Assembly: GCA_965221105.1 (NCBI GenBank)
Contig: OZ244871.1
Location: forward strand, 511,648 to 575,647
Length of the DNA: 64,000 nucleotides
From: Pseudomonadales bacterium
Lineage (GTDB): Bacteria > Pseudomonadota > Gammaproteobacteria > Pseudomonadales > GM7GCV1
Direction of reading: 5' to 3'
The notes beneath the pieces were generated by a model. That model was given only the letters and a program-made list of their open reading frames with translations, did not search any database and was not told where the DNA came from. This document shows, in pieces, positions 11,252 to 62,278 of the stretch. Position 1 is the stretch's first letter. The number at the start of each line of letters is the position of its first letter. A program made the translations under genes and the position numbers.

Positions 11252-11269
11252 GATGTCACTTCCTGAAAT

Positions 11270-39991: not shown

Positions 39992-40318
39992 GGCCGCGCC
40001 GGGCGAGCGATGGCTCGGAATTGATCACGTACACCCTGCACAAAGGCACAAATCGACGCTTTGATACGGGCACAGGGTTCACTCCGATCAACACATACGA
40101 GCGGTCGCCAATCGCACATGCTTCTGCGGTGCTGGATGTCTGACTGAAAGCGCCCCGTCGTCGCACGTCTCATTCCACATTCGACAATGCTCTTGCAAAA
40201 CCCCGCCAAGCCCCTTAGGCTTCGCCTCGTTCAACGTATCATGTCGGGCGCGATTCGGAGATAGAACTGTGCCCGTCTCTGCGTGAGTTGTTGTGGTCGG
40301 CCGATTGGCGACTGCGTC

Positions 40319-42667
40319 ATGAGGTACCCTAATGTGACCGATACGTTCATATCCCGGTTTTTCGAACTGATTGTGCATAGAGCGCTGTCTGCACTTCTTG
40401 CAGTGATGCTGTGCGTCGCCGCTCTTGCGGCCGGGCTCCAGCATCTCACCACTGCGGGCGTGGGCATCCGAACCCAGTTTCAGGAAGACGATCCCCATCT
40501 GCTCAGGCTGGAAGAATTCGAAGCGACCTACGCCGTGTCCGACAGCGCACTCATCGTTGTCGCGCCGCCCGGCGATAGTGTGTTCACTCGTGATGCGCTG
40601 GTTGCTGTCGAGCGGTTGACCGACGCGCTGTGGCACGCACCCTACGTTGTACGTGTGGACTCGTTAACGAATCACATGCATATCGAAGGAACCGAGGACA
40701 GCCTGATCATCGGACCGCTCGTCGAAGATGCTGCCTCGCTTGACGGCGCCATGATCGACGAGACTCGATCAATCGCACTCACCAGTTGGAACACGGCTGG
40801 CCGCCTGGTTTCACGCGATGGTCGCCTCGCTGGCCTGATCGTCAGCCTCGCCCTCCCCGAGTCAGAGGAAGATCGGGAACAGGCGGAGGCTGAGGTCGTC
40901 GAGGCCTTCTACGATATTGTTGATGCACAAGGCACGGCACACCCCGAATTTTCCTACTATGCATACGGCGAGATGCTTCTTGCTGAAGACATTCGAAATG
41001 CGGTGGATGAGGACATGTCCATTCTCGCGCCGACTGCCTTCGCGACAATGATGCTGGTTGCCATCCTCGTGTTGCGCTCATTCTGGGGTGTCGTGGGAAT
41101 CCTGTTCATGATTGTTTCGGTGATGCTGTCAAGCTTCGGGTTCGCAGGCTGGTCGGGGCTGAAGTTCTATGCCTCGAGCGGTGCCGCCATATTCGTCCTC
41201 ATGGCAATCGCCATCGCCCACTCGGTCCACCTGATCCACGGCGTGATCAATGGAATGTGTGAGGGAATGGACCGCACTTCTGCAACGCTTCATTCGCTGA
41301 GAACACATGCCCGTCCGATTTTCCTTACATCACTGACGACGGCGATCGGCTTCCTGAGCTTGAACTTTTCGGAAATGCCTCCATTCCGAGTCATGGGAAA
41401 CATCGTCGCGTTCGGGTCCATGATCGCGTTTGCCTATTCGGTCACGCTCCTGCCTGCCTTGATGTCGATAGTCCCCATGAAAATACCTTCGAGGGCTCCC
41501 GCACAGCAGGAAGGGAACGCTGTTTTTTCCGAGCGTCTGGGGCATTTCGTGATTTCCCATAGTGTCAAGCTGCTTTGGATTTTTGTGGCCCTGGCGATTG
41601 TGAGCGCATTTGGAATCGCCCGAATCGAGCTGGACGACAACAATGCCAAGATACTCAATCAGAGCTACCAGCTTCGCCAATCCGCCGACTTCATCGACGA
41701 GCACTTCTCGGGACTGGATTCATTGGAGTACTCGCTGGATTCAGGACAGGAAAACGGGATCATTGACGTCGAATATATACGTCAGGTTGAGTCGTTCGCG
41801 AACTGGCTCCGCCAGCAACCCGAAGTCAACCATGTTTCCTCGATTGCCGATGTTCTGAAACACCTGAACGAGACCCTGAGCGACGAAGCGGACGGCTCTG
41901 AGCGCCTGCCCGAGGATCCTGATCAGATCGCTCAGTACCTGCTTCTGTACGAACTCTCCCTTCCTGTCGGGCTTGACCTGAACAATCTCATAAGCTTTGA
42001 TCGCTCGGCCAGTCGCTTGACGGTGTCAATACAAGGGCTCTCGGCGAGGCAGCAGATCGAGTTTGATGAACGTGCTTCGACCTGGCTTCGGGAAAACGCC
42101 CCCAATATCCAGACTGGCGCAACAGGTGTCATCATGGTCGGCGCTTATGCAGTGATCAGAAATATCACGAACATGCTGATCGGAACCATGGTGGCCATGT
42201 CCATCGTCTCCCTGCTGCTGGTCTTCGTATTCAGGAGTGTGCGCTTGGGACTGCTCAGCCTCGTTCCCAATTTCCTGCCGGCAATCATGTCGATGGCTAT
42301 CTGGGGCTATGTGGTCGGACACGTTAGCGTCGCGGCTTCTATCGTGACAGCAATCGCGTTTGGCATCGTCGTCGATGACACCATTCACCTGATGTCGAAA
42401 TACCTGAGAGCCCGTGCTGAGGGCAATTCACCCCCTGAGGCAATCCTGCCGACATTCAGGCTCGTGGGAAGACCGTTGCTTACGACAACCTTGATTTTTG
42501 CGCTGGGCTTCCTCGTTTTTGGCGCATCAGGACTTGTGGCTAATCAAACGCTCGGCATACTGGTCGGCATGACGGTCGTCATCGCGCTCGTGGCGGATTT
42601 CCTTCTCTTTCCGCCGCTCCTGCTCGCTCTTGACAGGAACGAAAAAAATGCTGAGGCCAGGGTTTAA
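40319..42667 (+). CDS. RND-superfamily exporter, MMPL/HpnN-like (COG1033 type)
   Basis: About 780 aa with two 6-TM bundles separated by large periplasmic domains. ATG 40319 (MRYPNVTDTFISRFFELIV). No AcrB-type motifs; the architecture is that of MMPL lipid exporters. Confidence 0.8.
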   Translation: MRYPNVTDTFISRFFELIVHRALSALLAVMLCVAALAAGLQHLTTAGVGIRTQFQEDDPHLLRLEEFEATYAVSDSALIVVAPPGDSVFTRDALVAVERLTDALWHAPYVVRVDSLTNHMHIEGTEDSLIIGPLVEDAASLDGAMIDETRSIALTSWNTAGRLVSRDGRLAGLIVSLALPESEEDREQAEAEVVEAFYDIVDAQGTAHPEFSYYAYGEMLLAEDIRNAVDEDMSILAPTAFATMMLVAILVLRSFWGVVGILFMIVSVMLSSFGFAGWSGLKFYASSGAAIFVLMAIAIAHSVHLIHGVINGMCEGMDRTSATLHSLRTHARPIFLTSLTTAIGFLSLNFSEMPPFRVMGNIVAFGSMIAFAYSVTLLPALMSIVPMKIPSRAPAQQEGNAVFSERLGHFVISHSVKLLWIFVALAIVSAFGIARIELDDNNAKILNQSYQLRQSADFIDEHFSGLDSLEYSLDSGQENGIIDVEYIRQVESFANWLRQQPEVNHVSSIADVLKHLNETLSDEADGSERLPEDPDQIAQYLLLYELSLPVGLDLNNLISFDRSASRLTVSIQGLSARQQIEFDERASTWLRENAPNIQTGATGVIMVGAYAVIRNITNMLIGTMVAMSIVSLLLVFVFRSVRLGLLSLVPNFLPAIMSMAIWGYVVGHVSVAASIVTAIAFGIVVDDTIHLMSKYLRARAEGNSPPEAILPTFRLVGRPLLTTTLIFALGFLVFGASGLVANQTLGILVGMTVVIALVADFLLFPPLLLALDRNEKNAEARV

Positions 42668-42684
42668 CTGAAGTGGGAATAGTG

Positions 42685-43494
42685 ATGCAAACAGCGAGTG
42701 TTCGGAGTGTGAGTCTGTGGATACTGGTAGGTGGCCTGCTGCTGGCCCCTCTGGCTGCGGCGGTGGATGCCGAGCCGAGTGCCGAGGAGAAGGGGCTGGC
42801 CATTGCCCGCGAGATGAAGGCGCGTGACAGCGGCTGGGGCGACAGCACAGCGACCATGGAGATGCTGCTCTACGGACGCAGCGGCACACCGGCACTCAGG
42901 GAAATGCGGATTCTGACCCTGGAAGTGGAGGACGACGGTGACAAGTCGCTGATCATCTTTGACACCCCTCGTGATGTCCGGGGGACGGCCTTTCTCAGCT
43001 TTACCCACATCGATAAGCCCGACGACCAATGGCTCTACCTGCCGGCCCTGAAGCGGGTCAAGCGTATCTCCTCAAAAAACAAGACCGGGTCCTTTATGGG
43101 CAGTGAATTCGCCTATGAAGACCTCAACTCGTTCGAGGTGGAGCGCTACCGGTATCTGTGGCTGCGGGATGAGGCCTGTGGGGAGCTGGTGTGTTACCTG
43201 GTCGAGATGACGCCGCTCGACAGCTATTCCGGGTACAGCAAGCAGCTGTTCTGGATTGACCAGGAGCACTACAGGATCCAGCGGGTGGATTATTATGATC
43301 GCAGGGACACGCTGGCAAAAACTCTGGAACTGAGCGAGTACACCCAATACCTGGATGTGTGGAGGGCACTCACCCAGTCCATACTCAATCACCGCAACAA
43401 GCGGAAATCAGTGATCCAGATGAGGGACTATGAGTTCAGAACCGGCCTGACGGAGGCGGATTTTACCTCGAACAGCCTCAGGCGCGCCCGCTAG
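42685..43494 (+). CDS. LolA-like outer-membrane lipoprotein-sorting protein
   Basis: Signal peptide, then RILTLEVEDDGDKSLIIFDTPRDVRGTAFL...DDQWLYLPALKRVKRISS...SFMGSEFAYEDL, the typical LolA_like family block that accompanies COG1033 exporters. Confidence 0.8.
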   Translation: MQTASVRSVSLWILVGGLLLAPLAAAVDAEPSAEEKGLAIAREMKARDSGWGDSTATMEMLLYGRSGTPALREMRILTLEVEDDGDKSLIIFDTPRDVRGTAFLSFTHIDKPDDQWLYLPALKRVKRISSKNKTGSFMGSEFAYEDLNSFEVERYRYLWLRDEACGELVCYLVEMTPLDSYSGYSKQLFWIDQEHYRIQRVDYYDRRDTLAKTLELSEYTQYLDVWRALTQSILNHRNKRKSVIQMRDYEFRTGLTEADFTSNSLRRAR

Positions 43495-43501
43495 CTGCGC
43501 C

Positions 43502-44719
43502 ATGGTGTGTCCGGGCCGGGTCTGGTGCACTCTGGGCATACTCCTGGTGCCTGCTGGCCTGATGTCAGGGTCGGCCCATGCCGAACTGCTGGGGTACGTC
43601 GGCGGCCAGGTTCGCTGGTTTCCCAGTGACGGGCTGGATCCCCGCCAGGTGGAGACCCAGATCTCCACAGTGCTGGCCCCTGAGTGGTTTACCCACTGGA
43701 ATGACGGCGATGACAGCGTCACTGTCAGCCTGTTCTACCGATACGATGCAGATGACGAGAAGCGCTCCCGTGGTGATGTCCGCGAGCTGTACTGGCAGCA
43801 TGTGGGTCATCAGTGGGAGCTGACCATGGGGATCAAGCAGATGTTCTGGGGGGTGACCGAGTCCCAGCACCTGGTAGACATCATCAATCAGATTGACCTG
43901 GTGGAAGCCGTGGACGGCGAGGAGAAGCTTGGGCAGACCGTGGTGCATCTCGCGCTGCTGCGAGACTGGGGGACACTTGACCTGCTGCTGCTCCCCGGCT
44001 TTCGCGAACGGACATTTCCCGGGACAGCGGGTCGTCTGCGCACGCACCCGGTCACTGTTGAGGCGGCGCGGTATGAGAGTGCCTCGGGCGATGATCATGT
44101 CGACCTTGCCGCCCGCTGGAGTCATGACATCGGGGCCTGGAGTCTGGGTGTCTCGGCATTTACCGGCACCTCCAGAGACCCGCTGATCAGGCTCTCTGCC
44201 CGGGATGGTGCGGCGATTCTGCAGCCGCTCTATCCCCAGATCCACCAGTTCGGACTCGAGCTCCAGTATCTCTCGGGTGACTGGTTCTGGAAGGCTGAAG
44301 GTAGTGCGCGTGACTACCAGGACGATGCGCTGGGCGGCGATGATTTCGGGGCTATGACCGCGGGGTTTGAATACACCCATGTCGCCCTGTTCGACACCAG
44401 TTGGGATCTGGGCCTGCTGGCGGAGTACTCGGCGGATACCCGGGAGACCTCGGAGGGTGCCCTGCTGCAGAACGACCTGTTTGCCGGCCTCAGGCTCAGT
44501 TTCAATGACCTTGGCAGTTCGGAGATCCTGCTGGGTGGCATTCAGGATCTGGACCGCTCCGGATCACGGTCGGTGTTTGTCGAAGCCAGCACCCGTTTTG
44601 GCAACGCCACCCGCGTCACCATCGATCTCTTCCACTTCAGTGCCGATGCAGAGGCGGATGCGCTCCATGCGTTCAGCCGGGACAGCTATCTGGAGATCAG
44701 CCTGAACTACCACTTTTGA
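43502..44719 (+). CDS. Putative outer-membrane beta-barrel protein (hypothetical)
   Basis: Signal peptide LGILLVPAGLMSGSAHA, alternating-residue strands, terminal ...LEISLNYHF (aromatic C-terminus). Third gene of the exporter trio. Confidence 0.6.
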   Translation: MVCPGRVWCTLGILLVPAGLMSGSAHAELLGYVGGQVRWFPSDGLDPRQVETQISTVLAPEWFTHWNDGDDSVTVSLFYRYDADDEKRSRGDVRELYWQHVGHQWELTMGIKQMFWGVTESQHLVDIINQIDLVEAVDGEEKLGQTVVHLALLRDWGTLDLLLLPGFRERTFPGTAGRLRTHPVTVEAARYESASGDDHVDLAARWSHDIGAWSLGVSAFTGTSRDPLIRLSARDGAAILQPLYPQIHQFGLELQYLSGDWFWKAEGSARDYQDDALGGDDFGAMTAGFEYTHVALFDTSWDLGLLAEYSADTRETSEGALLQNDLFAGLRLSFNDLGSSEILLGGIQDLDRSGSRSVFVEASTRFGNATRVTIDLFHFSADAEADALHAFSRDSYLEISLNYHF

Positions 44720-44879: not shown

Positions 44880-45355
44880 ATGAGCGACAAGACCAAATCC
44901 ACATTCGCCCCACGCGTCCGCGCCATGCCGGTACTGTCGATGATGATGCGCATGGCCGAGCTTTGGGGATACCGCGTCCACAACCCGTACAAGAACGCCA
45001 AGCGATACAGGATGGAGCCGAAGGAGCGTTTCCTCACCGTCGAGGAAATGGTGCGGCTCAACGCCGTGATCGACGCGATCCCGCGCTACGGCCCCGATTG
45101 CTCGTATCTCTTTCCCGCCCGCCGGCGCGGACCATCGACAACATCGCCTCGCAATGGAACCGCATCCGCGACGAGGCTGGATTGTCCGGGCTGCGGCTTC
45201 ACGACCTTCGCCACTCCTTGGCATCCACTGCCGCCATGAACGGCTTGGACATGGTGGCTATCGCCAAGCTGCTCGGTCACGCGCTGGTCGAGACGACGGA
45301 GCGGTGCGTCTCTCTGTCCGACCAGTCGGCCACTGACGCCGCTCACTGTGATTGA
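44880..45355 (+). pseudogene. Tyrosine recombinase (phage-type integrase) remnant
   Basis: AELWGYRVHNPYKNAKRYRMEPKERFLTVEEMVRL (frame 1), then after a frameshift near 45130 ...WNRIRDEAGLSGLRLHDLRHSLASTAAMNGLDMVAIAKLLGH..TTER. The N-terminus and part of the catalytic domain are missing, and the catalytic Tyr context is degraded (RCVSL). Confidence 0.75.
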
Positions 45356-46407
45356 GGAGGATTGAAAATGTCCTCCAGCGTTTCAGCGCTGAGCAGAGCG
45401 TGCAGCCAGTGATCCAGTTGCGTGGCAGAGGCGATGCGCACCGCTTCGATGCACTGCTCGGAGAGATCGCCATATTTGAGACGCGCCAGTTGCAGGAAGG
45501 TCTCAGCTTTGCCCCTGGCTTCACCTTCAGCCATCCCAGCAGCCTTGCCTCTGGCTTCACCTCTGGCTTCACCTCTGGCTTCACCTCTGGCTTCACCCTC
45601 AGCCATCCCATCAGCTTTGCCCTGTTCGAACCAGGTTTCAGCAAGTGTGCCCATGAGAGCCTCCCATCGTTCCGGTTTCGCCTGACGCAGCGCAGCCTCA
45701 AGCATGGTCTGCGTAATCTTCTGATCACCTACTATATAGTGCAGAGTTGCCGATTCCAAGTCCGATCCATCGACAAGCGGGGCGATGATATCGGCCAGTT
45801 CCTCGTGCCCAATCCTGTCTCGCCGCGAGATATGCAGCACATGAAACACTGACCGGACTTCAGGGCGGGACGACATCTGCTCCAGGCTCATCTGACCAAT
45901 ATCACGCAGGACATAGGCCATGGAACGGCTGAATGGACGTATCTCCTCATCATCCTCGATCAGATCAAACAGGGAGCGCGGAACAGTCCAATTCATGGCG
46001 CCATGGTAGAAGACAATCGGAATGATCGCTGGCAATCGGCTCTTGAGGTCTGGATGCTCATCGGCATAGCGTTTCCAGATATTGATCATATACCCGGCAA
46101 GCTGGAGCGGGGTTTTCTGGTCCGGTTCGCTTTTGTGTTCAAGCAATGCGTAAATGAGCAGCGGAGTGCCACCATCCAGTGTCACCTCGAACAGTCGGTC
46201 GGCCTGGCTCCCGCGCAGGGCCTCATCAACAAAGCTGCCATCGATCAATCGCGGATCCTGCGCAGCAAGACGCGTGGCAATCGGCTCTGGCAGATGATCG
46301 CGCAAGACCTGTCCTGCCCGCTCAGGATTGGTCAGCAGGGTGCGGAACAGCGCATCGTGCCGCGTGGTCGGCAGGCCAGTTGGTCTTTTCGGTGTGTCTT
46401 CACTCAT
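45343..46407 (-). CDS. Rpn-family recombination-promoting nuclease / putative transposase (PD-(D/E)XK, YhgA-like)
   Basis: HDALFRTLLTNPERAGQVLRDHLP...ADRLFEVTLDGGTPLLIYALLEHKS...IIPIVFYHG. ATG 46407 preferred over the long track start 46653. The C-terminal region contains a GEAR x4 repeat. Confidence 0.8.
   Translation of the reverse strand: MSEDTPKRPTGLPTTRHDALFRTLLTNPERAGQVLRDHLPEPIATRLAAQDPRLIDGSFVDEALRGSQADRLFEVTLDGGTPLLIYALLEHKSEPDQKTPLQLAGYMINIWKRYADEHPDLKSRLPAIIPIVFYHGAMNWTVPRSLFDLIEDDEEIRPFSRSMAYVLRDIGQMSLEQMSSRPEVRSVFHVLHISRRDRIGHEELADIIAPLVDGSDLESATLHYIVGDQKITQTMLEAALRQAKPERWEALMGTLAETWFEQGKADGMAEGEARGEARGEARGEARGKAAGMAEGEARGKAETFLQLARLKYGDLSEQCIEAVRIASATQLDHWLHALLSAETLEDIFNPPQSQ
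45548..45595. repeat. 12-bp tandem repeat x4 (cctctggcttca)
   Basis: Four exact units, counted directly. Encodes (GEAR)4 inside the Rpn-like ORF. Confidence 0.95.
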
Positions 46408-46676
46408 AAGTACATCTCTGTCACTGCGCTCGTGTCCGGTCCCGAAGGTGTCGTACAGCCCGCCATCGCTGGGAGGCGATGATTGACACCCATCATCAAC
46501 TGGGATGGAATCGGTCGCCCGGCGGCCAGATGCGCTACTGGGCTCGCTCGGCGCGGCACGGGGTGCTTGGTGGCATCGGCTTTGGGTCAGTGACCTTTCA
46601 TTTGACGACCTGCCGGGTCTCGCCCCCGCGGATGTGCTGGCTCCTCGCCCCAAGTGGTGTTACAAGCCAGCCACAC

Positions 46677-47453
46677 TCAATACCCCAGAACACCGTAATC
46701 CCCGTCGACGATAAGGCGAATGGAGGTCCAGAGGCCCAGCAGTGCGAACAGCACCCAGGGCGAATTCAGCGCCCAGATATAGATGAGCATCTCACGTGCG
46801 CTGAGCCGGGCCTGTCGGTTCGCCACGAAGAAGCTGACCCAGTACACCGATGTCGCGTACGTCAACTGCCAGAACAGCATCGTTCCGACGATACCCACAA
46901 TCACCGCGGGCAACAGCTCGAACGTGAAAGCGGCATACAGGATCAAAGTTGGAACCGGAGTCAGGAAGCCATTGGCAATGTCCACGTTGAAACCGTAGGT
47001 GCGGCGGTCCGCGTAGGAACCATCGATTTGGGAATATGTCGCCCAGACCTCGGCCCAGACCATCGAGGACAATATTCGTCGAAGTGGAACCCTCGTGGTC
47101 AGGAATTCAACGGCCGCTGGCCGACCTGTTTCGAGCTGGCGGGCGCGCCAGTAATCGGCGCGTCGCTCGATGAGGTCACGCCTCAAGAACAGGCACATCT
47201 CCCAATAGCAGATCACCAGATTAATCGAAAAGAACAGGATCAGGAGGGCATGAACGATGCCGAAGTTTCCAAGGACCCAGTAGCGTGCACCGATTCCCGC
47301 CAATGTCAGGACCGCGATGATCAGGACTGTGAAGAGCCAGGCCGAAATTGTCGGCCTGGTCTCTCGTGCGTCGGATTCAGGATACGCGGAATCGGCACGG
47401 CGTTCGGTCATGTGCCCCAATCCGGGTGACACATAAATCGTTTTCCCCTGCAC
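46677..47453 (-). CDS. 4-TM membrane protein, EBP/EXPERA-like (possible sterol delta8-delta7 isomerase)
   Basis: Hydrophobic segments and spacing resemble emopamil-binding protein: VWATYSQIDGSYADRRTYGFNVDIANGFLTPVP vs human EBP [33 protein letters not shown]. The EBP His/Glu catalytic positions are not obviously conserved. Alternative start ATG 47411. Confidence 0.4.
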   Translation of the reverse strand: MQGKTIYVSPGLGHMTERRADSAYPESDARETRPTISAWLFTVLIIAVLTLAGIGARYWVLGNFGIVHALLILFFSINLVICYWEMCLFLRRDLIERRADYWRARQLETGRPAAVEFLTTRVPLRRILSSMVWAEVWATYSQIDGSYADRRTYGFNVDIANGFLTPVPTLILYAAFTFELLPAVIVGIVGTMLFWQLTYATSVYWVSFFVANRQARLSAREMLIYIWALNSPWVLFALLGLWTSIRLIVDGDYGVLGY

Positions 47454-47536
47454 TTCAAGTCGCCGTCAAGCTGGGTGTATATCAAGCACCCACACCACGC
47501 CCTCCGTCCGAACCGCCGCATTTCTGTGCGCATGAT

Positions 47537-47695
47537 CAGCCAGTGGGCACCGCAATACCAGACTCGCCGCTGTCCTTGGATAAGGCGGAACAGATAGACC
47601 AGCAGCACGAGGCGCACATCGTGGACGATGTGCTGGAACCAGTGTCGGAGCACGATCTTCGCCTCGTCAATCAGGGCAATTGGGGTGCAGGCCAC
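47537..47695 (-). pseudogene. Relic of a second COG2907-type FAD oxidoreductase (C-terminal ~53 codons)
   Basis: IALIDEAKIVLRHWFQHIVHDVRLVLLVYLFRLIQGQRRVWYCGAHWLI parallels NSRIDESKIVKRWWFQHVVHDVRHVALLVHLFRFIQGKRRSWHCGAHTLI of 51265..52638. No upstream part. Confidence 0.7.
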
Positions 47696-47886
47696 CTGGC
47701 CCGATGGGGAGCACGTATCGCTTGGTCCTGGGTTGTTGAGTCCTCCATGCCTATACTCACCCCGCAGATGTGGCTTGGGCTTGGGCTGGGGAGCGGAACA
47801 CACACATGTTCCTGGGTCCTGAGCTGCAGCGTGACACACATCCTGCAGAATGTGCGACCCATGCCTTTCAATCACAATCCAGCAGT

Positions 47887-48408
47887 CTAACCAGGCACCC
47901 TTCCCGCTTCCTCCCCCGATTCCAGAGGCACTCCCGCCTCCACATATGCCTTCACGGCTTCCACATCGGCGGTAATGCCTTTAACGGCTGCTGGACGGAG
48001 AAAGGGCGTGATCAGCTTACCCATCAAACTGATGGGTTCTATCCGGACCAGCATGTCGAGCTGGGCTTCATCACCGCTTTCACTGGGCGTCACAGTGAAG
48101 GTTGTATGCCAACGGGCTCCTGCCTCTTCGGTCACAAGACGAACCATCCTGCCATCCTCGAAGCCAGTCACCTCGCTTTCGGTCGCCGAGAGGCCAAAGA
48201 CCTGAGCAAACAATGCCTGTGCGCCGCTGAAGTGCCGCGTCTCGCGAAATCGCGCCCCGACCCCAGTTTCGTTGTCGGTGAGAAACTCCACCGTGTCAAT
48301 CTCCGGAATCGCCAAGCCGTAGTTGCGGCCATTGGCGACGACATCGAATACGGCCTGCGCTGTTGCAGCGACAGTCCGGCTAATTGTGACTGGCTTCAAT
48401 GTGATCAA
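47887..48408 (-). CDS. SRPBCC (START/Bet v1-like) lipid-binding-fold protein
   Basis: 173 aa. ITISRTVAATAQAVFDVVANGRNY...GARFRETR...WHTTFTVTPSE is the typical polyketide-cyclase/SRPBCC pattern. Confidence 0.7.
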   Translation of the reverse strand: MITLKPVTISRTVAATAQAVFDVVANGRNYGLAIPEIDTVEFLTDNETGVGARFRETRHFSGAQALFAQVFGLSATESEVTGFEDGRMVRLVTEEAGARWHTTFTVTPSESGDEAQLDMLVRIEPISLMGKLITPFLRPAAVKGITADVEAVKAYVEAGVPLESGEEAGRVPG

Positions 48409-48717: not shown

Positions 48718-50820
48718 TCATGCTCCCCCCGCAGTGACTGGACAGGTGGCAGCCTCCGAAGGAGTGAATTCGGCGGGTGCGCAGGGCGGGCGGGCGGGCG
48801 GTGAATTCAGCTCATGCCTTTTCTCTGCAATCCGGAGCTTCATCTTACTGTTCGGCGACATTGTCGGAAAGGGGTTAATCCGAAGCTGGTAGTCAGTGGG
48901 TGCCAGCTCGAAGCGGAAATAGTGGACGAGCATCAGCAGACTGATTGCCAGATGGAGCTCGACCCACCGGGAACCCAGGCACTTGTGGGTGCCCAGGCCG
49001 AAGGGGGCGTAGCTCGAACTCTTCCAGTCGGTACTCCCGTCGCTCTCTGCACCATCCGAAGCTTTTTCCGTCTGGTGACGTTCGATATCGAAGGCAAAGG
49101 GATCGGGAAAGACATCCTCCATGTAGTGCGTGGCCGTCTGGACAAGGTGTATCTTCGAGCCCACCCGTATCTCGTAGCCCTCGACCACGCAGGTGTTCAT
49201 CACCGTTCTGATCTGTATGGGGATGATCGGGTAGAGACGCTGGGATTCCATCATGAAACGGTAGGTGAGATCGATTGCCGATCTGCTCAGCGCATCCGCC
49301 TCGGGATCGCCATCTGCAAAGACCCTGTCGGCCTCCTCTTGGATCTGCCTGTACAGATCGGGCTGACGCAGAAGGTTGTAGAGCGCAAAGCTCAGCGCAT
49401 TGCCCATGTAGAGGCTGACGATCAGCGGAGAAATCAGGGAGAAGGCAAGATCCGTCTCGGGCAGAAACTGCGAATCAGCTGCGTGCAGGCTCATTATGTC
49501 GTCCACGATGTCGCGGGGGCACCCCACGCGCTGGGCCGGCATATGTGCAACCTGAATGCGGTGTACCAGATCGGCGATCATCTTCTTGCGCCGGTTCATG
49601 CTTGGAGTTTTCAGCATGAACTTCGGGAGCGCCCGCTGAACATGTGTGACCAGTGAACGCTCCTTGAAATTGAGTACGTCTCGGAATTCCTTCTGGGTGT
49701 CGATGCCGACCGAAAGCTGCGAAAATTGCGCATTCATGAAATCCTGGCACGCCTCAACGGCAGGGAGCACATCGCCAGCCTTCCATGTCACAATATGGTT
49801 GTGGGCGTGGTAATACACCTCATCGAGACGGTCGGCCAGCGCGCCGCGCGAGTAGACTGCCTGAATAGCCTTGCGCATGCGGAAGTGATCGGCACCATCC
49901 ATTGAGGGCAGAATGCGCGATGCCCCATAGACCTGCTCGAATCCCGTGAGGTAGTCCTTCGATCGAACATAGATGCGGCCGATTCGATGCAGCCATTCAT
50001 TGGCCCCGGGGCCACACAGAACGAGCATGCCCCCCTTGACAAAGGGTACGTTGAGGTTGAAGACGGGGCCGTGCTTGCGAGCGAGGTCGGCAAAGACAGC
50101 GGGAACGTTGCCGGTTCGTAACTCTGGGCTGAAGAGCAGGTCGCGCAGGGGAACTGATGGAATCGGTTTCGTGCTCAGGGCACGACGAAAACGCGGCTGG
50201 GAGATGCTCTTGGCGGTCGCCTCGCCGATGGAACGACCGATGATATCCAGTTTGCAGATAAAGTCGACGCGCTGGTTGATCTCCTTGTCCAAAGGGAAGA
50301 TGAGCTGAAGGACGTTGCACGAATTGGCGAGCGCGACCAAAATTGCGTCCTTCGGATGGGGAATTTCGTCCGCAAGCAGAATCTTGGCGACCCGCGCCTT
50401 GATGAACTCGCTCGGTATGTCTTCGGGTGTTGAGTATGCGTCCACTTGCCATGTGCCCGAGGCGAGAGACCAGAATCCCCCATTGTGGTGGATCAGGATT
50501 CCTTTCTCCCTGAGGCTATCCAGGGTGTCTACCATGACCGCTTCAGAGCGCGGCGAAAGGTATTCGATCCAGTATTGGATGTTTCGCTTCTGTGGCTCAT
50601 CGCTGATTACTTTCAGCATGGAGTCCAGATGTGGATCTTCTGTCGCAGTCGGGTCGGTAACGAAGACATGCTCCAGATCCATGTCAATGCGACCCGATAA
50701 TGCCAATTCTGCAAGGCAGGCACCTGCGACGGCACAGTTCAGGTTCCAACCGGGAACCTGATGGAAGTAGCCGCTCTCATCGTTGAGGAGCAGCAGGACC
50801 AATTCATGCGGCAAATTCAT
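48718..50820 (-). CDS. GPP34/GOLPH3-domain - cytochrome P450 fusion protein
   Basis: 700 aa. Residues 1-~215 are GPP34-like (ELVLLLLNDESGYF...LNCAVAGACLAELALSGRIDMD...DSLREKGIL...AILVALANSCNVL). Residues ~230-680 are a P450 (ExxR: ESQR; PERF-like DPFAFDIERH; heme loop FGLGTHKCLGSRWVELHL). Confidence 0.88.
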   Translation of the reverse strand: MNLPHELVLLLLNDESGYFHQVPGWNLNCAVAGACLAELALSGRIDMDLEHVFVTDPTATEDPHLDSMLKVISDEPQKRNIQYWIEYLSPRSEAVMVDTLDSLREKGILIHHNGGFWSLASGTWQVDAYSTPEDIPSEFIKARVAKILLADEIPHPKDAILVALANSCNVLQLIFPLDKEINQRVDFICKLDIIGRSIGEATAKSISQPRFRRALSTKPIPSVPLRDLLFSPELRTGNVPAVFADLARKHGPVFNLNVPFVKGGMLVLCGPGANEWLHRIGRIYVRSKDYLTGFEQVYGASRILPSMDGADHFRMRKAIQAVYSRGALADRLDEVYYHAHNHIVTWKAGDVLPAVEACQDFMNAQFSQLSVGIDTQKEFRDVLNFKERSLVTHVQRALPKFMLKTPSMNRRKKMIADLVHRIQVAHMPAQRVGCPRDIVDDIMSLHAADSQFLPETDLAFSLISPLIVSLYMGNALSFALYNLLRQPDLYRQIQEEADRVFADGDPEADALSRSAIDLTYRFMMESQRLYPIIPIQIRTVMNTCVVEGYEIRVGSKIHLVQTATHYMEDVFPDPFAFDIERHQTEKASDGAESDGSTDWKSSSYAPFGLGTHKCLGSRWVELHLAISLLMLVHYFRFELAPTDYQLRINPFPTMSPNSKMKLRIAEKRHELNSPPARPPCAPAEFTPSEAATCPVTAGGA

Positions 50821-51041
50821 GGCATGCCCCCAACCACTGACTGGCTTACAATTCGTGCTCCCTTGGTTCTGCGTTCATATGGGTCAGTGCGGCTATGATG
50901 CCGCGAAAGAACCGGCAATGTCGTCCAGCCGAAGCGGATGAAAGGCGCCTCCAGCTTCTCAAGGGCAGACAGTACTTCTTCCTGCGATAGACCGCGTTTC
51001 TGCCTGAACACCCCACTCCGAGTGCCAATGTCCCCAGCCAT
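50817..51041 (-). CDS. Small hypothetical protein translationally coupled to the GPP34-P450 gene
   Basis: GGAGG then a 6-nt spacer then ATG (51041). The stop overlaps the P450 start as ATGA. An AT-rich promoter-like tract lies just upstream (51050..51130). No recognisable motif (MAGDIGTRSGVFRQKRGLSQEEVLSALEKLEAP...). Confidence 0.4.
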   Translation of the reverse strand: MAGDIGTRSGVFRQKRGLSQEEVLSALEKLEAPFIRFGWTTLPVLSRHHSRTDPYERRTKGARIVSQSVVGGMP

Positions 51042-51264
51042 ACACATCCTCCAAGTAATAATCGTAATCGCGCAAGTTTATGAATTCAATAAAAATATAT
51101 TCGAATCGGGAACTGAATGAAACTCGACTCACAGCTGTCCACTCACTGAGGCACCCACAGCCACTGGATTCGAGACGAGAAAGTATGCGAAACACCTGGT
51201 GTTCTACGCGTCGACATGCAGGTCTGTCGCACAGATCGGAGCACAGGGCCCTGAAGCCGGATGC

Positions 51265-52638
51265 TCACCCGGTTCGAGAACGCGCTCGCCTGAAGCGCCT
51301 GCCGTACATCATGCGTCCGTAGAAGTTAAACCATTTCCTGGCTTCTTCGTCGTCGAACGGATAGTCTGCACCGAGTTGCCGCGCCGTGACCAGTCCGGTG
51401 ACGAAACAGGTCTCCTGGCTATTGATGAGCGTATGGGCACCGCAATGCCAGCTTCGCCGCTTGCCCTGAATAAAGCGAAAAAGGTGTACGAGCAGCGCAA
51501 CGTGCCTCACGTCATGGACGACATGCTGAAACCACCAGCGCTTGACGATTTTACTTTCATCGATACGGCTGTTTGCATTGTAGGTCACCAGACAGGGCTT
51601 GTCCGAACGTTTTGCCCAAGGCTGCTGGTTATGCATGATGTACGTGATTTCGTAATTGTCAGGCCGTGCGGCGTATTGCTCAATGTGGTTGCTGCGGGTG
51701 TCGTTTGGCTCTGCCTCGTTGTCCGGCAGCACGGATGCATCCGAGTGGACGATGGCGTGATTATGCAGCTCGCTCTCGTAACGAATCGACGACAAGAGCC
51801 AGGTCTCGAAGAGACTCGGGGCCTCCAATGCCATCAGGGTTTGATTGGCATTGCAGGCGAAAACTGCATCGTCGAAAATTTCCGTGTCGCCGTTCTCGTC
51901 AACGACGGCTACTTCCGTCTCGCGGCGGATGACCTTCCGCACCGGCCGGGCCAGGTAGATCTTGTCGCGAAAAGATTCCGTCAGCTTGTTGTAGATATTG
52001 CGCGTACCGCCATCCCATGTCCGCATCGGTGTCGCATTGACGATGTCGAAGAAATCCAGGTACCGGGCAAAGAGCGATGCCGGCATGTCAAACACATTGG
52101 TCGCCATCAGAAAGTTGACGAACATGGGCTTGAGCACCTTGTACCTGAAATCTCCGGAAAATCGGCCCAAATTCAGCACCATGCCCATGCTGAGGTAATT
52201 AAAGGGATTGAGGGCATTGAGGAATCTTGACCGGGTGCGGGTGAGCGCGCCGAACCATTTCAGGCGTTTCAGCAGTTTCTGGAATCTATCGATTTCCACC
52301 CGCAACTCCCGACTGATTTCGGTATCGAGATCATGAGCATAGATTTCACCACGGTATTTCACGCTGTAGCTAAATCGTGTATCGACGAGTTCGACGCCGA
52401 GTTGCCGCATCACCAGCAGGATATGCGTATAGACTGAGGGGATGCACGCGGTGACTGATATATCGAAGGGGATTGATGAGCCGTCGTCCTGCGGCATGTC
52501 AGCGGTGACGGCGTTACCACCGACCTGAGGCTGGGCTTCATACAGTCGGAAATCGAACTTGTCCGGATTGTGCTGCAGAGCCCAGGCAACTCCGAGTCCA
52601 GAGACTCCTCCTCCGATGATTGCTATCCTTCTTGGCAT
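51265..52638 (-). CDS. FAD/NAD(P)-binding oxidoreductase, COG2907 / amine-oxidase-like
   Basis: RIAIIGGGVSGLGVAWAL...YEAQPQVGGNA dinucleotide fold. C-terminal WWFQHVVHD...CGAHTLINSQETCFVTGLVTARQLG. ATG 52638 or GTG 52647. Confidence 0.85.
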   Translation of the reverse strand: MPRRIAIIGGGVSGLGVAWALQHNPDKFDFRLYEAQPQVGGNAVTADMPQDDGSSIPFDISVTACIPSVYTHILLVMRQLGVELVDTRFSYSVKYRGEIYAHDLDTEISRELRVEIDRFQKLLKRLKWFGALTRTRSRFLNALNPFNYLSMGMVLNLGRFSGDFRYKVLKPMFVNFLMATNVFDMPASLFARYLDFFDIVNATPMRTWDGGTRNIYNKLTESFRDKIYLARPVRKVIRRETEVAVVDENGDTEIFDDAVFACNANQTLMALEAPSLFETWLLSSIRYESELHNHAIVHSDASVLPDNEAEPNDTRSNHIEQYAARPDNYEITYIMHNQQPWAKRSDKPCLVTYNANSRIDESKIVKRWWFQHVVHDVRHVALLVHLFRFIQGKRRSWHCGAHTLINSQETCFVTGLVTARQLGADYPFDDEEARKWFNFYGRMMYGRRFRRARSRTG

Positions 52639-53355
52639 CTTCGCCACCCTGCGAGAAATAGGGCGCGCACTGTACCAGTTTTAACGGACAGTTTGAACAC
52701 TCACTCACGCACCCATACCCACAGGTACTCAGCCATATGCGGCGATACTGGGTCAACGCTCTCGGGGCAGGCTGATCGCCGGACTGCTCGAAGAACTCAA
52801 CCAGACCGGCACGGTCTTCTCTGGAGTCAGACTGCGCGTGTCCTGCGAGCTGCCCTGGACCGAATGCACAACTCCGGGGGGAACCGTGCATACACTCTGC
52901 TCGGGGTCAGGACCTTTGAACTCGGAACGAAGCGCTGAACCGCCCGCCCTCGGAAATGAAGCTGTTCATTGAACAGCTTCCATTGCACCATTGAAAACGG
53001 GAATCAGGAGGCACATCGTCTTCGGGTGAGCCTGTTGCGCCCCGCTGTGAATGCCTCCAAAGGATATACCCCTGTCTTTCACCGGCAAGATGGAAGCCGG
53101 GGCCGTCAACTTCAGGATGGTCAGCGCGGGGATGATCCGGAATACGAAAGCATGGTCACGCGGCACTTCCGGGTCTCACGCCAGTGCAGGTTTCTGAATG
53201 CCAACTTCCCTGATGCACAGATCGCAGGGTCCGATGTTGTGTGGCCTCTGACCTCTGATGAAGATGAAGAAGTCAATGGGGTTCGGGCACCCCGGCCTGC
53301 GCGCCCAGGCACAAGGAGCCCAAGTGCAAGCCCGGCCATATTCTGTCCATCCATG

Positions 53356-53919
53356 TCACAACTTCGCAGGTTTTCTGATCGAACGCAGCACATGCCGGCC
53401 GTAGACGCGCAAGCTGCGGAGCAGGGTCCTGTAATCAAGCGTACTGAACAAGGTATCGGCCAGCCCGAACGGCAGCATGGAGGGTACTGAGCCACGGACG
53501 TACTCGAGTATCCAGGCTTGATCCACCATGCGATAACCCTTGGCTACACCTTTCGGCAAATACACCACATCGCCCTTGCCGAACACCTGTCGTTGCGTAT
53601 CGCCCTGATTGAAATACCAGAACTCGCCATCCAGAATGTACGTGTAATCCTCTGCAAAATGATAGCGCCCGGTGTGACCGCCGCCGCCGATGGGGGTTCC
53701 GAAAAAGACCAGGTATTCCCACAGCGAAGCGTACAGGATGGTGAGTTGTCCCATGGTGCCGCCAGCGTTGGAGAAGACCCATTCAGGTTGAGTATCAATC
53801 CGGCCCGGGTAGCGCTCGACCAAATCTTGGGTTATTGCCGCCATCATCTGTTCCAATGGCGCGTCGAGATGCCGCTGGGCAATCTCGCGCAAAACCTCCG
53901 GTTCGAATACATATTTCAT
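53356..53919 (-). CDS. ERG2 / sigma-1-receptor family protein (C-8 sterol isomerase-like), lacking the N-terminal TM anchor
   Basis: Collinear with human sigma-1 receptor from residue ~35: WVFSNAGGTMGQLTILYASLWEYLVFFGTPIGGGGHTGRYHFAEDYTYILDGEF / LEYVRGSVPSMLPFGLADTLFSTLDYRTLLRSLRVYGRHV (cf. [53 protein letters not shown] / [40 protein letters not shown]). Confidence 0.85.
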   Translation of the reverse strand: MKYVFEPEVLREIAQRHLDAPLEQMMAAITQDLVERYPGRIDTQPEWVFSNAGGTMGQLTILYASLWEYLVFFGTPIGGGGHTGRYHFAEDYTYILDGEFWYFNQGDTQRQVFGKGDVVYLPKGVAKGYRMVDQAWILEYVRGSVPSMLPFGLADTLFSTLDYRTLLRSLRVYGRHVLRSIRKPAKL

Positions 53920-54980
53920 TGGGTGACTGAAGCGTCCGGTTTGCGGGCCAGAAAGAAAAACATCGGCGTAAAAATCCCGGACTCACCTCCGATCACCAGC
54001 GCGTCCCCCCCTCTATTGAGCAGGGTGCTGATGTCCCTGGCACCTTTCGGAAACACACGCAATGCCTCACCCACCCTCAACACCAGGTTCGTCAAGGCGC
54101 GACCAACCGGCGTGCGCGGGATACTTCTGAAGCTGATATCACGGCCTTGCAGGGCTCGTTGCCAGGGTGTTTCCGGATCGGAATCCACAGCGCGGTCATG
54201 AGCGTCGACAAGTTCAAACCCCGCCTCTTGCAACGCGTGGGACACTTCCGTAGTCAGAGAAATCTCAGGCAGTCCGTTGCCGACCATGATGTCGTTCTTG
54301 ATACGCTGATGTTCCTCGTCGTCCTGGTCGAATCTTTCGGTAACGCACCAGTCATACCCGGCGAAACAGCCACCCGGACGCAGCACGCGCAAGATCTCCC
54401 GGAACGCTGCGGTCTTATCGGGAGCGTGCGGCATGGATTCGATCGCGATGGCTGCGTCAAAACGATTATCCGCTTCAGGAATGTGCATGTAATCGCCCTG
54501 AATGAAGTGGCATAAAGACTGAACATCACGGGTGTGATGTCTGGCGCGCTCAAGCTGGTATCCGTTGTTGTTGAGGCCAACGAAACTGGCCCCGGAGTAG
54601 CGTGCCAGGTTGCCCGTCGGTCCACCGACTCCACAGCCCGCGTCCAGCACCTCCATACCCGGCTTCAGCCCCATCCGGTCGGAAAGGTAGTGCTGGTGCC
54701 TGAGCAGCGATGCCTGTAAGGTCTCTCCCCGCCGTCGCGGAGCAAAGTGGAATGACTGGCCCCAACCGTATTCGTAAAAATCGGTTGCCAGATCGTAGTA
54801 GTTGTTGACCAGAGCGCGATAGCGCTCTTTCCTGCTGTCGAGGCCGCCATCGTAGATCTCATTGTATTCATCAACCACAGACTTGACATCATCTGGAGCG
54901 ATGTCTGCGAGAAACTCGGACTTCGAATTTTCATTTCGCACTGATTTCACCATATCCATATTATAGTTGCCCTTTTCCAA
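53916..54980 (-). CDS. Sterol C-24 methyltransferase (ERG6/SMT family)
   Basis: YYDLATDFYEYGWGQSFHF (SMT signature, cf. yeast YYNLVTDFYEYGWGSSFHF), SAM motif VLDAGCGVGGP, GLNNNGYQ, IESMPHAP, and the sterol-MT C-terminal domain ending GIFTPMFFFLARKPD (cf. LFTPMMLFVARKPE). ATGA overlap with the ERG2-like gene. Confidence 0.9.
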   Translation of the reverse strand: MEKGNYNMDMVKSVRNENSKSEFLADIAPDDVKSVVDEYNEIYDGGLDSRKERYRALVNNYYDLATDFYEYGWGQSFHFAPRRRGETLQASLLRHQHYLSDRMGLKPGMEVLDAGCGVGGPTGNLARYSGASFVGLNNNGYQLERARHHTRDVQSLCHFIQGDYMHIPEADNRFDAAIAIESMPHAPDKTAAFREILRVLRPGGCFAGYDWCVTERFDQDDEEHQRIKNDIMVGNGLPEISLTTEVSHALQEAGFELVDAHDRAVDSDPETPWQRALQGRDISFRSIPRTPVGRALTNLVLRVGEALRVFPKGARDISTLLNRGGDALVIGGESGIFTPMFFFLARKPDASVTQ

Positions 54981-55450: not shown

Positions 55451-55726
55451 ATGACCACAGAGACAGGGAGCGACAGGCCGATTGACTTCGAGCAGCACCT
55501 CGCGGAGCTTGAGCAGATTGTCGCTGAGATGGAGCGGGGCGAGATGACGCTGGAGCACTCGCTGTGTGCCTATGAGGCTGGCATTGCGCTCACCCGCAAG
55601 TGTCAGGCGGCACTTGATGCTGCGCAGCAGCGCATTGCGGTGCTGACCGAGGGTGCGGGTGTCTCTGGTGCGCCGCCTCTGGGTGATGCTGGTGACGGAC
55701 GGGCCCGGTGCCTGGACGATGCATGA
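55451..55726 (+). CDS. xseB: Exodeoxyribonuclease VII small subunit
   Basis: FEQHLAELEQIVAEMERGEMTLEHSLCAYEAGIALTRKCQAALDAAQQRI. ATGA overlap with ispA. Confidence 0.9.
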   Translation: MTTETGSDRPIDFEQHLAELEQIVAEMERGEMTLEHSLCAYEAGIALTRKCQAALDAAQQRIAVLTEGAGVSGAPPLGDAGDGRARCLDDA

Positions 55727-56628: not shown

Positions 56629-56645
56629 TCTCCGCTGCCCCGATC

Positions 56646-62270: not shown

Positions 62271-62278
62271 GGAATTTG

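Follow-up and report, generated by a model that had tools for sequence, protein, structure and literature searches.

A GPP34 domain fused to a cytochrome P450 has been described in bacteria by Ferreira et al. 2025 (Microbiome 13:4, PMC11706023), where this architecture was named GPP34_L and accounts for 656 of the 663 long GPP34 proteins. GPP34_L is distributed over many phyla of sponge symbionts and was reported to be exclusive to them; also, rare fusions of GPP34 with a Rieske protein or an ABC ATPase exist, and stand-alone GPP34 genes are frequently located no more than five genes away from a P450 gene (PMC11706023). The function proposed there is that of a secreted effector, which binds phosphatidylinositol 4-phosphate (PI4P) and halts phagosome maturation (i.e., anti-phagocytosis); the word "sterol" occurs 0 times in that paper, and pocket residues, secretion signals, and P450 motifs were not inspected. 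Here, we describe a GPP34-P450 fusion encoded at 48718..50820 on the minus strand of a 64,000-nucleotide stretch of DNA from a Pseudomonadales bacterium (contig OZ244871.1, positions 511,648 to 575,647 of the forward strand; the whole stretch is hereafter called the window). The gene lies among sterol genes, and we favor, with moderate confidence, its product as a cytoplasmic two-domain P450 enzyme that would tailor sterols at the membrane interface.

Sterol clusters of sponge symbionts have been reported in a separate literature. In Kelly et al. 2022 (PMC9531527), ERG24-CYP51-LSS clusters flanked by a sterol C-24 methyltransferase (SMT) were found in 115 of 537 Ircinia metagenome-assembled genomes (MAGs) from 10 phyla; those clusters were horizontally transferred, and the non-KEGG genes were all labeled as "Others". 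Furthermore, the SMTs of the symbionts are functional (Brown et al. 2023, PMC10070321). The loci examined here resemble the clusters in the two reports (PMC9531527, PMC10070321) in having ERG24, CYP51, and an oxidosqualene cyclase (OSC) together with SMT and SdmA/B, in occurring in the same phyla, and in their signature of horizontal transfer. Unlike the annotation in those reports, which covers KEGG or erg/sdm homologues only, the present one includes the GPP34-P450 fusion, an oxidoreductase with flavin adenine dinucleotide (the FAD enzyme), a KshA-like Rieske oxygenase, and an MMPL transporter with a sterol-sensing domain, none of which is described there. Indeed, the main text and supplements of Brown et al. 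2023 contain no mention of P450, erg5, GPP34, or FAD partners, and no link between GPP34 and sterols was found in the searchable literature. What is new here, namely the conserved sterol/transport neighborhood, the lost PI4P pocket, and an I-helix in a derived state, was likewise not found in the searchable literature. Three unconnected literatures (i.e., on sterol clusters of the sponge microbiome, on bacterial SMTs, and on GPP34_L) are hence joined, and a testable alternative is offered to the sole published hypothesis on GPP34_L as a secreted PI4P-binding effector, with residue-level evidence against PI4P binding and genomic evidence for a role in sterol metabolism.

Architecture of the fusion protein

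The gene is a single uninterrupted open reading frame (ORF) of 700 aa with an ATG start, as had been noted in an earlier annotation made from the DNA letters alone (the sequence-only reading), and the two domains named in that annotation were both recovered in Pfam: GPP34 (PF05719) scored 120.6 bits over residues 3-191 (gathering score 29.1), and p450 (PF00067) scored 120.5 bits (gathering score 22.8). In NCBIfam, only weak generic P450 matches were obtained for the fusion. The architecture had been taken as one not yet described, but its novelty is ruled out by Ferreira et al. 2025 (PMC11706023), with the 656 fusions among 663 long GPP34 proteins. The window protein is a further member of the published GPP34_L family, with which it shares the N-terminal GPP34, the C-terminal P450, and the length of ~670-700 aa; over the full length, it is 50-80% identical to proteins from MAGs of the kinds covered in that paper.

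The sequence-only reading had also asked for confirmation that the junction of the two domains is not an assembly artefact, and this concern is now removed. A protein 100% identical to the window fusion is encoded on a 2.77-Mb contig; the best 120 of 738 homologues all have both Pfam domains (~662-716 aa) down to 50% identity; the same full-length architecture recurs in over 120 protein clusters; and when each bacterial species was represented by one genome, at least 587 loci with the fusion were obtained. An artefact of assembly or two separate genes are ruled out by the unbroken architecture in hundreds of independent assemblies together with the conserved linker. Mean pairwise identity in a distant clade was 66% for GPP34, 61% for the linker, and 66% for the P450; the three segments are about equally conserved, and the protein would therefore be under selection as a unit. 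The inter-domain linker with the Pro-rich start of the P450 (50131..50199, minus strand; residues 208-230, 'TKPIPSVPLRDLLF') was delimited by its identity and by an alignment of 27 family sequences (alignment A1), in which I220 and P221 are invariant.

In terms of distribution, the closest fusion homologues were from MAGs with names such as Poriferihabitaceae, Palauibacter, and APA/COS/RHO/SB06xx bins, and the fusions from Nitrospira, Gemmatimonadota, Acidimicrobiia, and Chloroflexi were mutually 64-73% identical, which fits horizontal spread. When the P450 domain alone was searched against 1.84 billion cluster representatives in an exhaustive HMMER search, 232 matches at E<1e-30 were obtained, and stand-alone P450s were first seen at 39% identity. 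Among the best 150 of these 232 matches, ~40 representatives were only 26-46% identical, had a length of ~600-690 aa, and began to match the P450 at residue 206-281, and all ten of those tested turned out to be GPP34+P450. We regard the GPP34-P450 fusion as an old and radiated superfamily that is much wider than the published clade (at least 50% identity). One protein of 872 aa (P0326) has two GPP34 domains ahead of the P450. Also, a deep relative (L088) is from a TARA sample, given which the sponge-only distribution may fail for the whole superfamily.

The GPP34/GOLPH3-fold domain (50191..50820, minus strand; residues 1-210) was assigned by Pfam, by a profile search against GOLPH3, by Foldseek, and by the secondary structure in AlphaFold2 (AF2) models. 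The AF2 model of this domain had a predicted local distance difference test score (pLDDT) of 84.9 and a predicted template-modeling score (pTM) of 0.85. A Foldseek search against the PDB matched only GOLPH3/Vps74 (E 2.9e-8 to 5.5e-5, TM-score 0.63-0.70) with the remaining matches being noise, and the profile search gave E 2.8e-7 to 3KN1 (GOLPH3) and 7.6e-5 to Vps74; the assignment of the N-terminal part in the sequence-only reading is hence well founded. The domain is like GOLPH3/Vps74 (PDB 3KN1, 9QPQ, 2ZIH) in its fold, in the conservation of W81 as W25, and in the beta3/beta4 hairpin. Unlike GOLPH3/Vps74, however, it has neither the pocket Arg residues nor the pocket loop, it is fused to an enzyme, and it occurs in a bacterium without Golgi or COPI.

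The PI4P site of GOLPH3 is formed by W81, R90, R171, and R174, located at the N-terminal end of helix alpha6, and either W81A/R90A or R171A/R174A abolishes PI4P binding, as was shown for GOLPH3 and Vps74 (Wood et al. 2009, PMC2806290). In the fusion, W81 has its counterpart in W25, an invariant residue of the clade, but R90 is replaced by A32 (A, M, S, V, or I in the family), R171 by E93, and R174 by M96. Furthermore, a 10-residue deletion has removed the alpha5-alpha6 loop, and residues 81-105 form a single continuous helix in both AF2 models, so that the architecture of the pocket is lost. In the superfamily alignment, the position of R90 is never basic, Trp at the position of W81 is confined to the window's clade and its sisters, and Arg at the position of R174 occurs in many deeper subfamilies but not in the window's clade. 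Judged from the alignments and the models, PI4P binding by the N-terminal domain of the fusion is unlikely, and the phosphoinositide binding that the sequence-only reading had put forward for this domain does not agree with Ala32, Glu93, and Met96 in place of R90, R171, and R174 and with the deleted loop.

A different part of the domain is a candidate for contact with the membrane. The beta3/beta4 hairpin (50464..50496, minus strand; residues 109-119, with strands 109-112 and 116-119 in the models) has an aromatic tip, 'GGFWSL' (G114-F116-W117-L119), which is conserved as 'G(G/D)FW(S/T)L' in the window's clade; the hydrophobicity of the hairpin is not kept in the deeper GPP34-P450 subfamilies. 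The role of this hairpin in GOLPH3/Vps74 is known, and these adaptors bind the tails of enzymes and oligomerize through the same hairpin (PMC2806290). By analogy, the hairpin of the fusion is a candidate element for membrane insertion or oligomerization. Neither a transmembrane segment nor a signal peptide was found in the fusion, and the two 19-residue stretches with the highest hydrophobicity correspond to buried helices of the core. The N-terminal domain ends directly ahead of the Pro-rich start of the P450, 'KPIPSVPLRD', and in microsomal P450s, the transmembrane anchor sits just before the Pro-rich start of the fold. It is plausible from this analogy that the GPP34 domain is a stand-in for the eukaryotic N-terminal anchor, as the sequence-only reading had proposed. 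In addition, the model of the whole protein had a pTM of 0.72, which might be above expectation for two freely hinged domains.

The P450 domain (48790..50175, minus strand; residues 216-677) shares no more than 20% identity with any solved P450. In fold, it is nearest to CYP102, CYP184, CYP51, and CYP97, with Foldseek TM-scores of 0.75-0.79 to the first three, and the best solved relatives in sequence are CYP51B1 (68.7 bits, C-terminal half), followed by CYP184, P450DA/CYP102, and CYP97. An assignment as CYP51 is rejected, because the 68.7 bits extend over the C-terminal half only, the identity to the window's own CYP51 is 20%, and the I-helix differs from AG(Q/H)HT(S). The fusion P450 belongs to a distinct family, and the sequence-only reading, in which it was taken for a second P450, holds in that it is separate from CYP51. 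Like the sterol P450s of eukaryotes (CYP51, CYP61/CYP710), it is a P450 of a sterol locus with a non-catalytic N-terminal module and a Pro-rich hinge; unlike them, it has a soluble domain of the GOLPH3 fold as its candidate anchor in place of a transmembrane helix, and the identity to CYP51 is at most 20%. It is also like P450 BM3/CYP102 and the CYP51-ferredoxin of Methylococcus capsulatus (CYP51-fx, PDB 6MCW/7SNM) as a bacterial but eukaryote-like P450 with an extra domain; both are among the closest structural neighbors (TM-score 0.75-0.79), and CYP51-fx is likewise a sterol enzyme. The redox partners in P450 BM3 and CYP51-fx are, however, C-terminal, whereas the fusion has its extra domain at the N-terminus, and this domain carries neither a cofactor motif nor electrons.

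The catalytic motifs of a P450, including the two already quoted in the sequence-only reading as signs of a complete P450 (ESQR and FGLGTHKCLG), are present. In the ExxR motif (E525-S-Q-R528; 49237..49248, minus strand), E525 and R528 are invariant in alignment A1, as are G608, G610, T611, H612, and C614 in the heme-binding loop FGLGTHKCLG (48973..49002, minus strand; F607-G616), with C614 as the thiolate ligand; conservation of this Cys loop extends throughout the superfamily. A PERF-like motif is formed by P574, F577, and R581, all of which are invariant in the family.

The I-helix (49369..49458, minus strand; residues 455-484, 'IVSL-YMGN'), which was located by HMMER, paralogue, and 32-sequence alignments, departs from the canonical motif (A/G)Gx(D/E)T(T/S): the acid has been lost by deletion of one residue, and Tyr471 stands in the place of Thr. 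No alignment register in HMMER comparisons with CYP51, P450DA, and the window CYP51 restores the acid-Thr pair. In the 32-sequence superfamily alignment, most deep GPP34-P450 subfamilies keep 'AG(L/I)DT' and some have 'AG(L/I)HT' as in CYP51, and the deletion is shared by the window's clade and its nearest sisters ('IVSL-YMGN' or 'ASV-YLGD', with Tyr471 and sometimes Asn); the second paralogue in a locus of Thermodesulfobacteriota (L075) has 'D-P' at this site. Relative to the deeper subfamilies, the deletion is the derived state. It suggests altered chemistry of oxygen activation, and since the acid-Thr pair is missing, a plain hydroxylase is not to be assumed; the C-22 desaturation or hydroxylation of the side chain named in the sequence-only reading would be candidate activities. 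Some genuine P450s also have no I-helix motif for oxygen activation; the membership in P450 thus stands, while the canonical monooxygenase chemistry is in doubt. CYP61/CYP710 are likewise not known to have the I-helix Thr. For P450 enzymology, a superfamily with a built-in GOLPH3-fold N-terminal domain, in which one clade lost the acid-Thr pair and its sisters retain it, provides a natural experiment.

Three minor features of the gene were also noticed. Residues 678-700 (48721-48789, minus strand) form a Pro/Ala-rich C-terminal tail that is predicted to be disordered in the model and has a conserved 'CPVTG'-like end; in the 27-sequence alignment, the tail is confined to the window's clade (at least 62% identity) and missing in the 50% clade. 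Just ahead of the heme-binding loop, an acidic 9-residue insertion 'ASDGAESDG' (residues 587-595; 49036-49062, minus strand) is present in the window protein only (0 of 26 other aligned family members), in a region of low model confidence. Upstream of the fusion, furthermore, a 76-aa ORF (50817-51047, minus strand) has a GGAGGA ribosome-binding site and a helix-turn-helix-like segment, 'FRQKRGLSQEEV'; its TGA overlaps the ATG of the fusion (ATGA), which suggests translational coupling. A 71-aa ORF abuts the start of the fusion in a distant locus (L084), and the 80 loci described below yielded no small ORF with a conserved sequence.

Sterol genes around the fusion

The location of the fusion inside a sterol cluster, as claimed in the sequence-only reading, was borne out. 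On the minus strand of the window, the fusion is accompanied by the FAD enzyme with an amine-oxidase fold (51265..52647; Pfam Amino_oxidase and NAD_binding_8), an ERG2-type sterol C-8 isomerase (53356..53919; Pfam ERG2_Sigma1R, 213.7 bits), and SMT (53916..54980; Pfam Sterol_MT_C, Methyltransf_11, and CMAS), and directly downstream of the fusion, there is a SRPBCC/START-like lipid-binding protein (47887..48408; Pfam Polyketide_cyc2), which is adjacent to the fusion in nine close relatives. The only solved relative of the FAD enzyme is LkcE (E 2.8e-25), a flavin amine-oxidase-fold enzyme of a polyketide pathway. On the plus strand are genes for a polyprenyl synthase (55708-56628), Dxs (56457-58595, GTG start), a SdmB-like protein (58864-60036), a SdmA-like Rieske protein (60083-61180), the ERG4/24 C-14 reductase (61167-62270), and CYP51 (62267-63679); the last four were identified in Pfam. 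With NCBIfam scores of 303 bits to SdmB and 415 bits to SdmA, SdmA and SdmB are the best matches of the Sdm-like proteins, but both scores are below the 600-bit equivalog cut-offs. The other P450 of the window (62267-63679), which has 351 bits to the Methylococcus enzyme 7jj1, is assigned as a true CYP51. OSC is not inside the window, and the sterol cluster runs past the window end. Taken with the MMPL transporter described next, these genes (CYP51, ERG24, SdmA/B-like, ERG2, SMT, MMPL, Dxs, and polyprenyl synthase) identify the window, at the level of sequence, as a bacterial sterol cluster.

A putative sterol export set is encoded at 40283..44719 on the plus strand and is composed of a HAE3/HpnN-type MMPL transporter, a LolA-like protein, and a 405-aa uncharacterized protein. 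The trio recurs beside the fusion in three distant loci (L011, L060, and L076). We take it to resemble the BstABC sterol-transport set of Methylococcus, and its NCBIfam BstA score is 36.8 bits only.

The conservation of such neighbors was examined in a sample of 80 fusion loci with 10-kb flanks, which came from MAGs whose labels span at least 12 phyla, among them Chloroflexota, Nitrospirota, Latescibacterota, Gemmatimonadota, Acidobacteriota, Verrucomicrobiota, Actinomycetota, Binatota, Thermodesulfobacteriota, and Alpha-/Gammaproteobacteria. Two censuses were performed: a targeted one, in which proteins of the window were used as queries in tblastn, and an unbiased one, in which all ORFs of at least 90 aa in the 80 loci were clustered after removal of shadow ORFs and the cluster representatives were annotated. 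In the targeted census, a SMT homologue was found in 48 loci, the FAD enzyme in 39 loci with 70-83% identity across phyla, and at least one sterol-linked neighbor in 66 loci. SMT was located within 600 nt of the fusion in 37 loci, namely convergent and downstream in 28, co-directional and downstream in six, and upstream in three; an operon of the fusion with SMT is ruled out as a general claim by the 28 convergent cases, and only a conserved neighborhood is claimed.

The unbiased census led to a similar picture with some additional families. The most common neighbor was a Rieske oxygenase with the KshA C-terminal domain (52/80 loci), followed by an MMPL transporter of the HAE3/HpnN type with a sterol-sensing/Patched domain (48/80), SMT (46/80), and the FAD enzyme (37/80). 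Less frequent were AcrB (17/80), HlyD (15/80), a LppX/LprG-type lipoprotein (14/80), an MFS transporter (14/80), OEP (11/80), SRPBCC (9/80), and ERG4/24 (8/80). The sterol-sensing-domain matches in the conserved MMPL exceed the Pfam threshold, and the sole NCBIfam match of the conserved Rieske family with the KshA_C domain is SdmA. Genes for beta-oxidation, ring cleavage, KstD, Hsa meta-cleavage, and KshB were not among the conserved neighbor families of the 80 loci. At least four unstudied candidate enzymes or transporters are thereby added to bacterial sterol tailoring.

Several individual loci are of note. In L075 (Thermodesulfobacteriota), two tandem GPP34-P450 paralogues (7737-9761 and 10001-11989), which are divergent and match the two domains of the window protein with 29% and 32% identity, directly adjoin ERG24, CYP51, a fusion of squalene epoxidase and OSC (SQMO-OSC; 1273 aa, 14098-17919), SMT, and SdmA/B; a RND efflux system precedes this sterol cluster. 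Also, four other loci (L016, L043, L048, and L080) have several core sterol genes (among SMT, SdmA/B, ERG24, and CYP51) no more than 10 kb from the fusion, and in a Chloroflexi symbiont, the fusion and SMT are a two-gene cassette amid unrelated genes. The surroundings of the deep subfamilies are different in content: in L084 and L087, the fusion is followed by an EcKL/APH (ecdysteroid-kinase-like) gene and an MFS transporter, in L088 by a sulfotransferase (Sulfotransfer_3), and RND pumps adjoin other deep GPP34-P450 subfamilies. Such kinase, sulfotransferase, and RND neighbors of the subfamilies with the canonical motif are as expected for hydroxylation of a lipid followed by conjugation or export. 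Extra stand-alone GPP34 genes were found 4-6 kb upstream of the fusion in L006 (3797-4846, 349 aa, a Palauibacter MAG) and in L011 (5118-5855, 245 aa, an alphaproteobacterial MAG).

Function of the fusion and alternative explanations

On our favored reading of the fusion as a sterol-tailoring enzyme, the heme-thiolate P450 would act on a sterol, most likely at or near the side chain, in a pathway shared with SMT and the FAD oxidoreductase, to which the KshA-like Rieske oxygenase is added in the majority of relatives; the substrate or product would be moved by the HpnN/sterol-sensing-type MMPL or a RND transporter. The GPP34 domain would dock the catalytic domain on the surface of the inner membrane or on a membrane-protein partner by using the aromatic beta-hairpin and a flat face in place of the canonical PI4P pocket. 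Because the I-helix acid is deleted and Thr is replaced by Tyr, the chemistry is probably not standard hydroxylation, and desaturation or another non-canonical oxidation is the leading guess. We infer the sterol as substrate, the docking on the membrane, and the type of reaction. The class of substrate is suggested by guilt by association, which is strong and replicated across phyla, and the topology, the conservation of the hairpin, and the pTM of 0.72 faintly hint at a docking role. Furthermore, a joint transfer of the gene with sterol clusters, which are themselves enriched in sponge microbiomes, would explain the apparent restriction of GPP34_L to sponge symbionts.

Several points weigh against this reading. 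As 28 of the 37 adjacent SMT genes are convergent, the link between the two genes is one of neighborhood rather than of established co-transcription. In the targeted census, 14 of the 80 loci were without a homologue of SMT, the FAD oxidoreductase, MMPL, or SRPBCC within 10 kb, although three of them are short contigs and several are present in the broader Rieske/MMPL clusters of the unbiased census. A conserved ferredoxin or reductase near the fusion was not found in the 80 loci, where ORFs of 45-130 aa were clustered in the case of ferredoxin. The deeper GPP34-P450 subfamilies have no identifiable sterol genes nearby, and the range of substrates in the superfamily may be wider than sterols. 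In the pocket, the register of R171/R174 hinges on where the 10-residue gap is placed, and the GOLPH3 and Vps74 profile alignments differ in this respect; the gap is elsewhere in the Vps74 alignment, and still there is no basic residue opposite K178 or R181, nor does any alternative alignment put one at the two positions in the window's clade.

Among the alternatives, the one that survives best retains the same pathway and assigns to GPP34 the role of a protein-protein adaptor or of a module for sterol handling or oligomerization, by which the P450 would be coupled to SMT, MMPL, or a redox partner; we consider it rather unlikely. GOLPH3 and Vps74 do bind enzyme tails and oligomerize through the same hairpin (PMC2806290), and the rare fusions of GPP34 to Rieske or ABC ATPase and the stand-alone GPP34 near P450s (PMC11706023) would fit an adaptor, as would the extra GPP34 genes near the fusion in L006 and L011, the relative with two GPP34 domains, and a hairpin whose hydrophobicity is not conserved in the deeper subfamilies. 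No specific partner, however, co-varies with the fusion in all loci, the hairpin tip in the window's clade is aromatic as expected for insertion into a bilayer, and the N-terminal position of the domain is topologically equivalent to that of the microsomal anchor.

The high frequency of the Rieske oxygenase with KshA_C (the commonest neighbor, 52/80) raises another explanation, i.e., uptake and catabolism or detoxification of steroids, in which a side-chain oxidation like that of CYP125/CYP124 would be combined with a KshA-like ring opening and with import or expulsion by MMPL/RND. The recurrence of MMPL/RND transporters and the LppX/LprG-type lipoprotein and the RND pumps flanking the deep subfamilies also point in this direction. 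We regard it as improbable, nonetheless. The closest partner of the fusion, SMT, is a biosynthetic alkylating enzyme, and degradative genes (beta-oxidation, KstD, Hsa meta-cleavage, and KshB) are not conserved nearby, which makes a catabolic role less likely. In addition, the fusion is found inside de novo clusters with OSC, CYP51, ERG24, and SdmA/B, and KshA_C is also present in the biosynthetic SdmA, the only NCBIfam match of this very Rieske family.

It is still less probable that the substrate is a hydrophobic compound other than a sterol (a hopanoid or other triterpenoid, a natural product of the sponge, or a xenobiotic) and that the sterol genes are simply co-resident on a transferred island. 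The transporters do score best as the hopanoid-type HAE3/HpnN, the deep subfamilies have a sulfotransferase, an EcKL kinase, or RND pumps as neighbors and no sterol genes among them, and the four main sterol-linked homologues are missing in the 14 loci mentioned above. But SMT is tightly adjacent to the fusion, recurrently in many phyla with otherwise different flanks, the sterol-sensing domain in the conserved MMPL is matched above the Pfam threshold, and the fusion of L075 is embedded between core sterol genes. The published proposal of Ferreira et al. 2025 for GPP34 proteins, namely a secreted eukaryote-like effector that would bind PI4P of the host on the phagosome and so halt phagosome maturation with the P450 part being accessory, has in its favor the occurrence of GPP34_L only in sponge-symbiont genomes, the GOLPH3 fold, and W81 kept as W25. 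For the P450-fused form, it is the least probable of all, given that R90, R171, and R174 are non-basic in the fusion and the pocket loop is deleted (equivalent Ala changes abolish PI4P binding; PMC2806290), that the protein has no signal peptide, that the redox supply on which a heme P450 with its catalytic motifs invariant depends is unlikely inside a phagosome of the host, that the conserved neighbors are sterol enzymes and transporters and not secretion systems, that pocket residues and secretion signals were not tested in PMC11706023, and that sterol clusters, being enriched in sponge symbionts, account for the restriction to sponges equally well. In terms of GPP34_L, therefore, our account differs from the published one (PMC11706023), where a secreted effector with no sterol link is described, in its evidence for an intracellular enzyme of a sterol pathway.

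Returning to the sterol-tailoring enzyme, we tentatively extend the proposal as follows, with doubt as to the whole. The fusion, SMT, the FAD enzyme, the Rieske oxygenase, and the transporter with a sterol-sensing domain might constitute a mobile island for the remodeling of sterol side chains, which would let sponge symbionts make or rework unusual sterols; the Thr-less P450 might catalyze a new reaction, and GPP34 might have arisen in bacteria as an interface module of oxygenases that modify lipids, to be recruited later by eukaryotes as GOLPH3. If true, the island would be spread over a dozen phyla and bear on the alkylated sterols in the debate on the "sponge biomarker" 24-isopropylcholestane, and the Thr-less, acid-deleted site could serve, for example, to regenerate a side-chain double bond for repeated methylation. 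More generally, the results bear on the geobiological question of whether bacteria have a part in the distinctive sterols of sponges and hence in sterane biomarkers.

Other features of the window

The first 35 kb of the window contain housekeeping, TonB-receptor, and MFS genes. By its PurH, the source organism is placed, at the level of class or order, in the Gammaproteobacteria close to Spongiibacteraceae/Cellvibrionales. The Dxs ORF overlaps the polyprenyl synthase ORF by ~170 nt and its DXP_synthase_N match begins at residue 81; the real start of Dxs probably lies further downstream than the GTG at 56457. NCBIfam gave no specific equivalog for the fusion or the FAD enzyme, nor for the SRPBCC protein or the uncharacterized neighbors in the window, and relaxed Pfam searches of those uncharacterized neighbors gave nothing credible.

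Between the export set and the SRPBCC gene are three further ORFs on the minus strand. A 258-aa protein (46677-47453) has no Pfam or NCBIfam match, but homologues with 57-62% identity are encoded beside the fusion in the close relatives L001, L002, and L009 and also in L075 (about 17916), where the gene is located between the SQMO-OSC fusion and SMT in a full sterol cluster; this protein is regarded, from its recurrence, as a conserved sterol-cluster protein of no assigned family. Next to it is a transposase gene (YhgA-like Transposase_31; 45343-46653), and a 155-aa ORF (47408-47875) contains a 59-aa stretch (47522-47695) with 63% identity to the conserved FAD amine-oxidase-fold family over its residues 359-417. 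This ORF looks like a decayed second copy of the FAD enzyme, and its position next to the Transposase_31 gene suggests a rearrangement mediated by an insertion sequence at the edge of the sterol locus.

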